Origin: Candidatus Levyibacteriota bacterium
Lineage (GTDB): Bacteria; Patescibacteriota; Microgenomatia; Levybacterales; UBA12049
Reading direction: 5' to 3'
Length of the DNA stretch: 64,000 nucleotides
Assembly: GCA_016182235.1 (NCBI GenBank)
Contig: JACOXT010000003.1
Span: 66,209 to 130,208, forward strand
Part shown: one piece after another, positions 919-2,446 of the stretch
How the letters are laid out: each line of letters starts with the position of its first letter
Numbering within the stretch: the first letter of the stretch is position 1
The notes under the pieces: model-generated
The model's input: the letters and a program-made list of their open reading frames with translations, nothing else
Told to the model about the DNA's origin: nothing
Databases searched by the model: none
Translations under genes and position numbers: made by a program

Positions 919-948
919 ATCCTGAACTCGTTTCAGGATCTTCTTTTT
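919..948 (+). terminator. Hairpin ATCCTGAA-ctcgt-TTCAGGAT plus T-rich tract; probable groEL terminator built from a dispersed repeat
   Basis: Perfect 8-bp stem 919-926/932-939 followed by cttcttttt. The same element recurs at 18756-18776. Confidence 0.6.
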
Positions 949-974
949 GACAAAACAATTTAATATGATATAAT
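947..974 (+). promoter_or_regulatory. Sigma70-like promoter of the proB leader
   Basis: TTGACA 947-952, 16-nt spacer, extended -10 TGaTATAAT 966-974. Confidence 0.65.
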
Positions 975-980
975 CTGTTG

Positions 981-1248
981 TACAGTTTAGTTATAAAGCG
1001 TTTGAGTTTAGTTTCCTGCTAAACAAGCTGATTGCGAAAAGCAATACGGAAGCAAACCGTAAAATATAAGCAAAGCGTGTCGGCAAAGCGGAGCGCTTAC
1101 TAAATAAGAGTTATCTTGTTTAACGTTTGCTCCCCGTCATTGCGGGGATTTTTTATGGCAAGATAGCTAAAGCAAGGTGGTATCACGGGTACAGACCGTC
1201 CTTGCAAGAATCTAACATTTTGTTGGGTTTTTGTAAGGGCGGTTTTTT
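981..1248 (+). promoter_or_regulatory. T-box riboswitch leader (antiterminator/terminator switch), probably tRNA-Pro responsive
   Basis: The T-box sequence AAGGUGGUAUCACGG (1174-1188) is close to the consensus AGGGUGGUACCGCGG. Helix A1 is 1172-1177/1200-1205, the 7-nt bulge UGGUAUC is 1178-1184, and helix A2 is 1185-1188/1196-1199. A competing terminator pairs 1196-1205 with 1233-1242 and is followed by U6 at 1243-1248. A Stem III-like hairpin lies at 1132-1147. Confidence 0.8.
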
Positions 1249-1271
1249 ATCGCCTGAAAGGGGAGTTAATT

Positions 1272-2036
1272 ATGGGAAATCATCAAGAAAGAGAAATAGG
1301 ATTTCATTTAGAGCAAGAAAGGTTTGTTACCAGAAGAATGGTTGTTAAAATAGGAAGCAGCACTATAACTGGCAACACGGAGAATCTTGATGTTAATTTT
1401 ATGGAAAACATCGCCAGACAAGTCAGCTTACTATTTAATCAGGGCATAGAGGTCATGATAGTGACTTCAGGCGCTGTTATAAGTGGAAAGAGAGGTCTAG
1501 GTAGAGTTGATACAGTTCTTGATAAGCAAGTAGCTGCTCTGTATGGACAACCAGAGTTAATTAGCGAGTGGAGAAAAACTTTAAACAATAACGGAGTTAA
1601 AAAGGTGGGACAATTGTTGGTTACGGACATTGATCTTAGGAATGTCAAGACAATTTTAAGCAAATCTTTGCATTTTGGAGTAGTCGTAGTAAATGCAAAC
1701 GATCCTGTTAATAATTACGAGATGAAACAATTCTTAGTTTCTGCAGATAATGATAGATTAGCAGGATTTATTGCAAAGGAAATAGATGCTGATACGTTAC
1801 TTCTCCTAACAGACGTAGATGGAGTTTTAGATAAAAGTGGAAAAGTTATCAATAATTTCTCTACAAAAGAAGAAATAGTAATCTTTTCTGCATCAAGTCT
1901 TGGAACTGGAGGTATGTCTTCAAAAATTCAAGTCGCTCAGGAATTTATCGGAAGAGCAATTATTGCTAATGGAAGATCTGAAAATGTTTTATTAAAAGTT
2001 GCTAGGGGAGAAGAAGTTGGAACACAATTCCATTAA
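1272..2036 (+). CDS. proB: Glutamate 5-kinase (short form, no PUA domain)
   Basis: Amino-acid-kinase motifs VVKIGSSTITG, VTSGAVISGK, NANDPV, ADNDRLAGFIA, LLLLTDVDGV and GTGGMSSKIQVA are present. The SD aaaggggag lies 6 nt before ATG 1272. Confidence 0.85.
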   Translation: MGNHQEREIGFHLEQERFVTRRMVVKIGSSTITGNTENLDVNFMENIARQVSLLFNQGIEVMIVTSGAVISGKRGLGRVDTVLDKQVAALYGQPELISEWRKTLNNNGVKKVGQLLVTDIDLRNVKTILSKSLHFGVVVVNANDPVNNYEMKQFLVSADNDRLAGFIAKEIDADTLLLLTDVDGVLDKSGKVINNFSTKEEIVIFSASSLGTGGMSSKIQVAQEFIGRAIIANGRSENVLLKVARGEEVGTQFH

Positions 2037-2368
2037 AATAATTTAGTTCCTATTTTAGCGTCTCTGTCAGGACGTACCAGAACAACTTTTCCTTCCTCGT
2101 TTGCAACTCCGACTGTTAAGACTTCCGACATAAAGGGACCAATTTGTTTTGGGGGGAAATTTACAACACCCATAACCAAAATTCCTTCTAATTCTTCTTT
2201 GTTATAAAGATCAACAACTTGAACACTTGATTTCTTGATTCCAATTTCTGGACCAAAATCAATAGTCAGTTTATATGCGGGTTTTCTAGCTTCTGGAAAG
2301 TCCTCAACTTCTATAACTTTTCCAACCCTAATATCAACTTTTTCAAAATCACTATAGTTTATTTGCAT
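2033..2368 (-). CDS. Stand-alone tRNA-binding domain protein (CsaA/Trbp111-like)
   Basis: MQINYSDFEKVDIRVGKVIEVEDFPEARKPAYKLTIDFGPEIG... is the OB-fold tRNA-binding domain also found at MetRS C-termini. The MetRS in this window lacks that domain. Confidence 0.85.
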   Translation of the reverse strand: MQINYSDFEKVDIRVGKVIEVEDFPEARKPAYKLTIDFGPEIGIKKSSVQVVDLYNKEELEGILVMGVVNFPPKQIGPFMSEVLTVGVANEEGKVVLVRPDRDAKIGTKLF

Positions 2369-2384: not shown

Positions 2385-2446
2385 TGAAAAAAGATGCTGC
2401 AATGCGGGGAATGCCTCCAGGGGGCATGGGCGGAATGGACTACTAA
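2384..2446 (+). pseudogene. Displaced relic of a groEL 3' end ([20 protein letters not shown])
   Basis: By hand alignment, 63 nt align with groEL 843-905 at 56/63 identity, in the same orientation and frame, with its own TAA. Confidence 0.85.

Follow-up and report, generated by a model that had tools for sequence, protein, structure and literature searches.

What controls the gene for a glutamate-5-kinase-like enzyme that lies behind groEL in a genome of Candidatus Levyibacteriota bacterium, and is a tRNA sensed by the long leader that precedes this gene? The question is raised by a 64,000-nucleotide stretch of contig JACOXT010000003.1 (GenBank assembly GCA_016182235.1, positions 66,209 to 130,208 of the forward strand), here termed the window, the coordinates of which are counted from its first letter. 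An original prediction, made from the letters of this stretch, had proposed a T-box riboswitch, probably sensing tRNA-Pro, in front of an orphan proB gene. Comparison of the leader (991-1248, plus strand) with those of orthologous loci identifies it as a genuine, conserved, Pro-specific T-box, and it very probably controls the kinase gene by transcription attenuation in response to tRNA-Pro. On re-reading of the window, the coordinates and sequences that the original prediction had quoted for the elements of the leader all proved to be correct.

Recognition of the leader as a T-box

A search against Rfam at the gathering threshold revealed no T-box in the whole window, nor in 14 related loci. 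When the search was made permissive, the T-box family RF00230 was matched along the full model at window positions 992-1206 (30.4 bits, E = 4.3e-5), the gathering score of this family being 93 bits. As such, the cmsearch suggested along with the original prediction, where the lack of a hit was to speak against a T-box, returned nothing at the curated threshold and a match only below it. RF00230 was, moreover, the sole Rfam family with a significant E-value, both in the window and in five relatives, the leaders of which gave full-model matches at 32-49 bits (window and relatives together: 30-49 bits, E 4e-8 to 7e-4). The alignment takes in Stem II, Stem IIA, Stem III and the T-box sequence, with the antiterminator being aligned at high posterior probability, while 20 nt stand in place of the 86-nt Stem I interior of the model. 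Indeed, the score falls far under the gathering threshold because Stem I consists of a 6-bp hairpin only. Folding of the 291-nt leader gave a z-score of -5.5 relative to shuffled sequences, and a fold constrained to the T-box model lay at most 2.4 kcal/mol from the unconstrained minimum. Given the E-value, this z-score and the recurrence of covarying elements in 11 other loci, the match is more than one of chance, and the T-box identity put forward in the original prediction is upheld.

Those other loci were found among 27 distinct loci fetched for their orthologues of the kinase of the type found in the candidate phyla radiation (CPR). Twelve, including the window, present a leader of this kind directly 5' of the kinase gene, while 15 carry no T-box. 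The leader loci, namely, the window, L001 (identical to L165), L169, L179, L180, L168, L172, L004, L008, L010, L011 and L012, belong to Levybacteria, Roizmanbacteria and other Patescibacteria, with four of the leaders coming from close Levybacteria relatives. Since the kinases encoded there share only 38-80% identity with that of the window, the leaders sample real divergence. The kinase product counts over 1,400 relatives; of the closest ones, those with a name come from Microgenomates.

Because alignment of whole leaders with MAFFT misaligned the variable middle and L004, the 5' domain and the discriminator were tested separately, with a 39-nt inserted hairpin being removed from L012 and L004 being omitted from the 5' alignment. 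In the 5' domain, considered in ten leaders and four helices, 99.4% of the cells are paired and eight pairs are changed on both sides, with none of 500 shuffles scoring as high; when the partner strands were slid as a control, pairing fell to 22-41%. In the discriminator, considered in eleven cores (alignment A5), 94.2% of the A1 and A2 cells are paired and 10 cells are changed on both sides, again with 0 of 500 shuffles as high. Compensatory changes across relatives, which the original prediction had proposed to look for, were thereby seen in the Stem I base, Stem I, Stem II, A1 and A2. In the alignment of Stem III (A6), the helices of L180 are out of register and no pair counts were taken. 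With models R1 and R2, neither the window nor any of the loci gave a second T-box, and a metagenome scan with the kinase profile gave, among the matches listed, two CPR-type loci, both without a T-box.

The antiterminator and the competing terminator

The antiterminator, i.e., the discriminator core, spans positions 1172-1205 of the plus strand. Here, helix A1 pairs GCAAGG (1172-1177) with CCUUGC (1200-1205), helix A2 pairs ACGG (1185-1188) with CCGU (1196-1199), and the 7-nt bulge UGGUAUC (1178-1184), which starts with the UGGN of a T-box, lies between the two, such that the core reads AAGG-UGGUAUC-ACGG (1174-1188). Both helices, which were present just as the original prediction had them, covary, and the sequence GGUGGUA is invariant in the 12 leaders.

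Overlapping this structure is an intrinsic terminator (1196-1248, plus strand), composed of a stem at 1196-1242, with GUAAGGGCGG (1233-1242) as its 3' strand, directly followed by U6 (1243-1248). As the 5' strand of the terminator comprises the 3' strands of A2 and A1, the two folds are mutually exclusive. In the window, the terminator was calculated at -31.1 kcal/mol, as compared to -12.6 kcal/mol for the antiterminator. In 12 of 12 leaders, an equivalent hairpin (-12 to -32 kcal/mol) overlaps A2 and A1, is directly followed by U6-U8 and is more stable than the antiterminator. Moreover, the 3' strand of the terminator covaries with the 3' strand of A2, with CCGUCC, CUCGUCC and AUCGUCC being matched by GGGCGG/GGACGG, GACGAG/GAUGAGG and GGGAGGUGC, respectively. 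The competition between the two folds was thus rightly predicted, as were the 3' strand at 1233-1242 and the U6; the stem, drawn originally as a pairing of 1196-1205 with that strand, actually runs without interruption for about 22 bp.

The 5' decoding module

The Stem I domain (997-1029, plus strand) consists of a base helix, a K-turn-like loop, a 6-bp stem and a 7-nt apical loop that contains the specifier. The base helix pairs AGC (997-999) with GCU (1027-1029) and appears in the variants AGC/GCU, AAC/GUU and GGC/GCU (alignment A4). Above it, GUUUGA (1000-1005) lies opposite AA (1025-1026) in an asymmetric loop, in which A1005 is invariant, seven of 10 leaders have the G of GA, and nine of 10 carry AA or GA on the facing strand. 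The resemblance to a K-turn is one of sequence. The hairpin itself, GUUUAG-UUUCCUG-CUAAAC (1006-1024), presents 6 bp (1006-1011 with 1019-1024) and the loop UUUCCUG (1012-1018). Across the relatives (alignment A4), three of its six pairs are changed on both sides and pairing is 100%. A stem of 6 bp with a 7-nt loop is seen in 11 of the 12 leaders, with L004 having 4 bp and 7 nt. Absent is a long Stem I bearing the AG bulge and distal loop that together form the interdigitated T-loop platform for the tRNA elbow. The original prediction had accordingly been correct in describing an ultrashort, atypical Stem I, since a hairpin with an apical specifier recurs in the relatives.

The specifier is the Pro codon CCU (1015-1017), at positions 4-6 of the loop, followed by the purine G1018. 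In the same position, CCU is found in the window, L001, L169, L179, L168, L172 and L004, CCC in L008, L011, L012 and L180, and CCA in L010. The next nucleotide is G in all leaders save L004, where it is A, meaning that all 12 leaders present a Pro codon and a purine. This bears out the originally proposed Pro specifier, as does the presence of proS or proC downstream in relatives.

Stem I is followed by a minimal Stem II (1031-1045, plus strand), in which AUUGC (1031-1035) pairs with GCAAU (1041-1045) around the purine-rich pentaloop GAAAA (1036-1040). Four of its five pairs are changed on both sides, with 100% pairing (alignment A4), while the loop is GAAAA, GAUAA, GAUGA or GACGA in 9 of 10 leaders and the 7-nt GAAAUAA in L011. 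Stem IIA (1046-1062, plus strand) pairs ACGG (1046-1049) with CCGU (1057-1060) around the loop AAGCAAA and ends in the F-box-like CCGUAA (1057-1062). Both the ACGG/CCGU pairing and CCGUAA are invariant in 10 leaders, and Rfam aligned this element to Stem IIA. A Stem IIB-like pairing of 3-4 nt between the Stem IIA loop and the linker downstream can be read in the sequences of seven of the eight leaders outside the group of the window, namely, L180, L172, L168, L012, L011, L008 and L010.

Two further features touch upon this loop. AAGCAAA (1050-1056) is repeated verbatim 18 nt downstream (1068-1074), and UUUGCU (1126-1131), a 6-nt complement of the loop, is found at the 5' foot of the hairpin embedded in Stem III, described below; a long-range pairing between the loop and UUUGCU is possible. 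In the variable linker, the hairpin AGCGUGUCGGCAAAGCGGAGCGCU (1074-1097, plus strand) is predicted in the minimum-free-energy fold. At this position, other leaders contain hairpins of other lengths, with L180 offering AGUG/CACU where the window has AGCG/CGCU.

Stem III and its embedded hairpin

Stem III and the purines that flank it occupy positions 1106-1171 of the plus strand, with AAGAG (1106-1110) on the 5' side, an outer stem formed by UUAUCUUG (1111-1118) and CAAGAUAG (1159-1166), and CUAAA as 3' flank. The outer stem was aligned by Rfam as Stem III with a large insertion. In T-boxes, conserved purines surround Stem III in the order 5'-RRRxG ... AA-3' (PMC7583486), and the AAGAG and AA flanks seen here fit this motif. 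The apex of Stem III holds a hairpin with a terminator-like score (1131-1154, plus strand), i.e., UCCCCG-UCAUUG-CGGGGA (1131-1148) followed by U6 (1149-1154), which is kept in L001, L169 and L179; L180 has a different helix sequence there, CUCCGC/GCGGAG, followed by U8. This embedded hairpin could be a pause site that gives the tRNA time to bind or, instead, an early terminator.

Promoter, regulated gene and cognate tRNA

The leader is preceded by a sigma-70-type promoter (947-974, plus strand), with TTGACA (947-952) as -35 element and TGaTATAAT (966-974) as extended -10 element, together a 12 of 12 match to consensus with the TG. The promoter is thus where, and as close to consensus as, the original prediction had stated. 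When sequences were compared, a TTGAC-type -35 element and a -10-like hexamer were found at equal distance 5' of most of the related leaders. Transcription presumably starts near position 981, which gives a leader of about 290 nt up to the ATG at 1272; the leader had been correctly located between promoter and gene, yet its length had been set too short, at about 270 nt. Since groEL, lying upstream, has its own terminator-like hairpin (919-939), the leader and the kinase gene form a separate transcription unit.

The kinase gene (1272-2036, plus strand) is preceded by the Shine-Dalgarno sequence GGGGAG (1260-1265), which lies 12 nt past the U-run, outside the terminator and any helix of the switch. 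It encodes a glutamate-5-kinase-like amino-acid kinase of 254 residues without a PUA domain. The product matches the Pfam family AA_kinase, and its best NCBIfam match, by a wide margin, is proB (TIGR01027), at 144 bits relative to a cutoff of 186; the orthologues reach 129-159 bits to the ProB family. In addition, the protein aligns along its full length with solved glutamate 5-kinases (2W21, 2J5T and 4Q1T) at about 1e-24; NxND, DND and the lysines are conserved in this alignment, and K26, N141, D144, N160, D161 and K218 are invariant in the kinase family. From the structure of the E. coli glutamate 5-kinase, we take the NxND and DND motifs to serve in glutamate binding and the lysines to be catalytic. 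The assignment of the gene as proB is therefore borne out as far as the substrate motifs are concerned, but not in terms of the ProB cutoff or the PUA domain.

As far as the window shows, the gene is indeed an orphan, as had been claimed. ProA, ProC and ProS were not found in the 64-kb window and, when verified ProA queries were used, neither was any ProA homologue found in the flanks of the 27 related loci. Elsewhere, the order leader-kinase-proS is seen in L172, L004 and L012, and leader-kinase-proC-proS in L010. The amino acid specified by the leaders hence matches the genes regulated, i.e., those encoding the glutamate-5-kinase-like kinase, ProC and ProS.

The original prediction had also deduced from the UGGU of the bulge that the cognate tRNA carries A73. 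The tRNA-Pro genes of three related genomes (L003, L005 and L013) end in ...CACCCCG-A or ...GUCUCCG-A, such that A73, to which the bulge is complementary, is present in 3 of 3 tRNA-Pro genes near orthologous kinases. These genes (L003 1901-1972, L005 5664-5736 and L013 1128-1199, with anticodons GGG, CGG and GGG, respectively) lie at most 3 kb from the kinase gene, in loci without a T-box.

Proposed mechanism and alternative readings

Together, these elements suggest the following sequence of events. Transcription would begin at the promoter at 947-974, and the 5' module would offer CCU and the following purine in the apical loop of the 6-bp Stem I, backed by the K-turn-like base, Stem II and Stem IIA with its F-box, for pairing with the anticodon of tRNA-Pro. 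Were the tRNA uncharged, its 3' ACCA end would pair with UGGU (1178-1181), stabilizing A1 and A2 (1172-1205) and allowing read-through into the kinase gene. Were the tRNA charged or absent, the strand at 1196-1205 would be taken by the terminator (1196-1242 and U6), and transcription would stop before the Shine-Dalgarno sequence. We infer that the tRNA is bound, that the response depends on its charge and that, even without the Stem I elbow platform, binding is fast enough. In this respect, the G+C-rich CCN:NGG pairing may lessen the need for a platform, by analogy with what has been proposed for glycine T-boxes, and a pause at the Stem III hairpin and its U-tract may add time.

Several observations weigh against a tRNA-Pro-responsive attenuator. 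The RF00230 score, at 30.4 bits, is far under the curated 93. The Stem I platform is absent, although considered necessary for transcriptional T-boxes (PMC7583486), and Stem II, as far as can be read from its sequence, has no S-turn, being a 5-bp hairpin with no internal loop to form one. A partner for a Stem IIB pseudoknot was sought in the group of the window and none was found, with the nearby match for the loop AAGCAAA of the window amounting to only 2 bp. In A2, a base pair is A-U in 10 of 11 distinct discriminator sequences, rather than the conserved G-U sensor pair. The embedded hairpin and U6 (1131-1154), lying upstream of the T-box sequence, could end transcription before the switch forms. 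Finally, about eight independent lineages were sampled, with several of the leaders being closely related, and as no tRNA gene was found in the window, A73 was read only from the tRNA-Pro of related genomes.

Of the alternatives, the one that survives best, unlikely as it is, holds that the switch acts mainly on translation by sequestering the Shine-Dalgarno sequence, like the T-boxes of actinobacterial ileS. Apical-loop specifiers have so far been described in translational T-boxes (PMC7583486) and, in L012, L168 and L004, the Shine-Dalgarno sequence (AGGAGG or GGGAGG) forms part of the terminator's 3' strand, with the start codon coming right after the U-run, such that access to the ribosome-binding site would be blocked by the hairpin as well. 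In the window, by contrast, the Shine-Dalgarno sequence lies 12 nt past the U-run and in no switch helix, and translational sequestration is hence not part of the window switch. In addition, U6-U8 come right after the G+C-rich stem in all 12 leaders, a feature that a pure sequestrator does not need. It may nonetheless be that in L012, L168 and L004, transcriptional and translational control are both used.

Less likely still, and to be given little credence, is that the leader represents the remnant of a T-box, decaying or without function, with 1196-1248 acting as a constitutive terminator or being a structure of no consequence. The low Rfam score, the replacement of the G-U sensor pair of A2 by A-U and the terminator-like hairpin upstream of the T-box sequence would each fit such decay, as would L161, which has lost the leader and retains only the terminator's 3' half behind groEL. 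Compensatory changes in five helices, ahead of kinases that are only 38-80% identical, are not what a remnant would be expected to retain, nor are an unvarying UGGUA, a specifier that changes only between synonymous codons and a conserved promoter. The final alternative, that a tRNA other than tRNA-Pro is read in another frame of UUUCCUG (Ser by UCC, Phe by UUC or Leu by CUG), is highly improbable for, although triplets overlap in the loop, such that one sequence cannot fix the register, and A73 is not unique to tRNA-Pro, only frame 4-6 always specifies Pro, with the neighboring frames being mixed in amino acid (frame 3-5: UCC/CCC; frame 5-7: CUG, CCG, CAG and CUA), and the genes regulated encode ProS, ProC and a glutamate-5-kinase homologue. 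Attenuation of transcription in response to tRNA-Pro accordingly remains the preferred reading.

Comparison with known T-boxes

The original prediction had invoked the T-box control of proBA and proI in Bacillus as precedent. According to PMC3858371 and PMC13198045, both of these T-boxes use a CCU specifier (Brill et al., 2011, cited therein), and the precedent stands to that extent. The Bacillus T-boxes and the leader family considered here share transcription attenuation, CCU and a glutamate 5-kinase as target, with L010 also including pyrroline-5-carboxylate reductase. The present family differs in its 6-bp Stem I with apical codon, the absence of a nearby proA, the frequent inclusion of proS in the operon and its CPR host.

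The T-boxes of actinobacterial ileS (Mycobacterium tuberculosis and Nocardia farcinica), as portrayed in PMC7583486 and PMC11297988, resemble the leader family in their apical-loop specifier, short Stem I, lack of an elbow platform and insertion in Stem III. These reviews, relaying Sherwood (2015), Battaglia (2019) and Suddala and Zhang (2019), assign to the ileS T-boxes a Shine-Dalgarno sequestrator, a Stem II that is elongated and carries an S-turn, and the reading of Ile. The leader family, by contrast, reads Pro, has an intrinsic terminator and U-run, and has a Stem II of 5 bp capped by a GANRA-type loop. Of the traits of translational class II T-boxes, then, the leader has the apical-loop specifier but neither the sequestrator without a terminator nor the elongated, S-turn-bearing Stem II. 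With glycine T-boxes of the glyQS type, the leader family shares a minimal decoding apparatus, a G+C-rich codon-anticodon duplex (GGC:GCC there, CCN:NGG here) and termination as output.

Transcriptional T-boxes generally need the platform of a long Stem I to capture the tRNA by its elbow ahead of RNA polymerase, whereas a short Stem I with apical specifier is tolerated only with translational regulation, where time is not limiting and Stem II with its S-turn compensates (PMC7583486). Although the T-box itself is of a known kind, what is new here, as deduced from sequence, is that an intrinsic terminator is joined to an apical-loop specifier lacking the elbow platform, with Stem II being minimal. 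As such, an ultrashort Stem I together with a clear terminator offers a natural test of the kinetic argument for the platform, as well as a very compact tRNA-sensing module for engineering. One can go further and tentatively propose, as a possibility short of even odds, a third class of T-box, acting co-transcriptionally and without contact to the tRNA elbow, in which the CCN:NGG duplex and the 5-bp Stem II with GANRA-type loop would replace platform and S-turn, a pause at Stem III would add time in Levybacteria, a CsaA/Trbp111-like protein may contribute, and which would occur widely in Microgenomates and escape current T-box annotation.

CPR bacteria are thought to have little amino-acid biosynthesis. 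The leaders described here speak for tRNA-sensing riboregulation of proline supply in such bacteria, involving the glutamate-5-kinase-like kinase, ProC and ProRS. Standard annotation thresholds overlook these leaders; in TBDB, class II T-boxes were sought only in Actinobacteria, and otherwise RF00230 was used. A literature search, limited in what its negative outcome can tell, returned no report linking T-boxes with Patescibacteria, the candidate phyla radiation or named CPR groups.

Genomic setting and kinase loci without a T-box

The leader, the kinase gene and csaA make up a 1,480-bp block with a direct repeat of 61 nt, taken from the 3' end of groEL, on either side. The first copy is found at 845-905 and the second, 92% identical and forming an in-frame, 20-codon relic that starts at the ATG at 2384, is found at 2386-2446 (both plus strand). 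This second groEL copy is absent from all of the related loci compared. In the related Levybacteria L001/L165, L179 and L161, the order groEL-kinase is maintained without the duplication and, in the window, the block differs little in G+C content (0.33-0.39) from the DNA around it. Since its position is shared with related Levybacteria, the block is not a recent foreign insertion. The original prediction had spoken of an inserted block, of which the flanking groEL repeat was recovered while the notion of recent insertion was rejected; we read the repeat as the scar of local recombination in a lineage-conserved position.

Next to the T-box-kinase unit, but not co-transcribed with the kinase gene, is csaA (2033-2368, minus strand), which encodes a CsaA/Trbp111-like tRNA-binding protein. 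The gene is also present in L001 (4272-4604) and L012 (1435-1758), with partial copies in L169, L168 and L179, that of L179 being a remnant, and is not found beside any of the 15 kinase loci that have no T-box. The association of csaA with the T-box may be a lineage effect; a functional link between the CsaA-like protein and a T-box devoid of an elbow platform is speculation.

In L161 (3935-4000) and L163 (3945-4000), which encode kinase orthologues at 65-70% identity, the T-box leader has been lost. What remains of it includes the 3' half of the terminator (in L161, behind groEL), a U-rich run and the Shine-Dalgarno region. The kinase gene of L163 lies in an unexpected context, among ferredoxin and FlpD-type genes, which may reflect transfer or misassembly. 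In L007 (3820-3935), a long hairpin with U6 and the sequence GUGGUGGAUC lie ahead of a kinase-proS pair. This terminator-like leader was considered as a T-box but, as the discriminator model R2 gave no match, it was not counted.

Other kinase loci without a T-box present leaders of different kinds. In L003 (3898-4030) and L081 (1192-1325), the kinase gene is preceded by a conserved 25-codon leader ORF, encoding MF[RK]TSLPIP..VPS, together with alternative pairings among CCCAUCCCA, GUGUGGGG and CCCACAC and then a terminator, CCUCCC..GGGAGG with U7. From its sequence organization, this leader looks like a ribosome-mediated attenuator that reads Pro codons ahead of the same gene. In L006 (20-75), L009 (3925-3975), L173 (2955-2995) and L175 (2955-2995), the motif GACC(C/T)ATAGTTG is found just 5' of the -10 element, where it may serve as the operator for a protein regulator.

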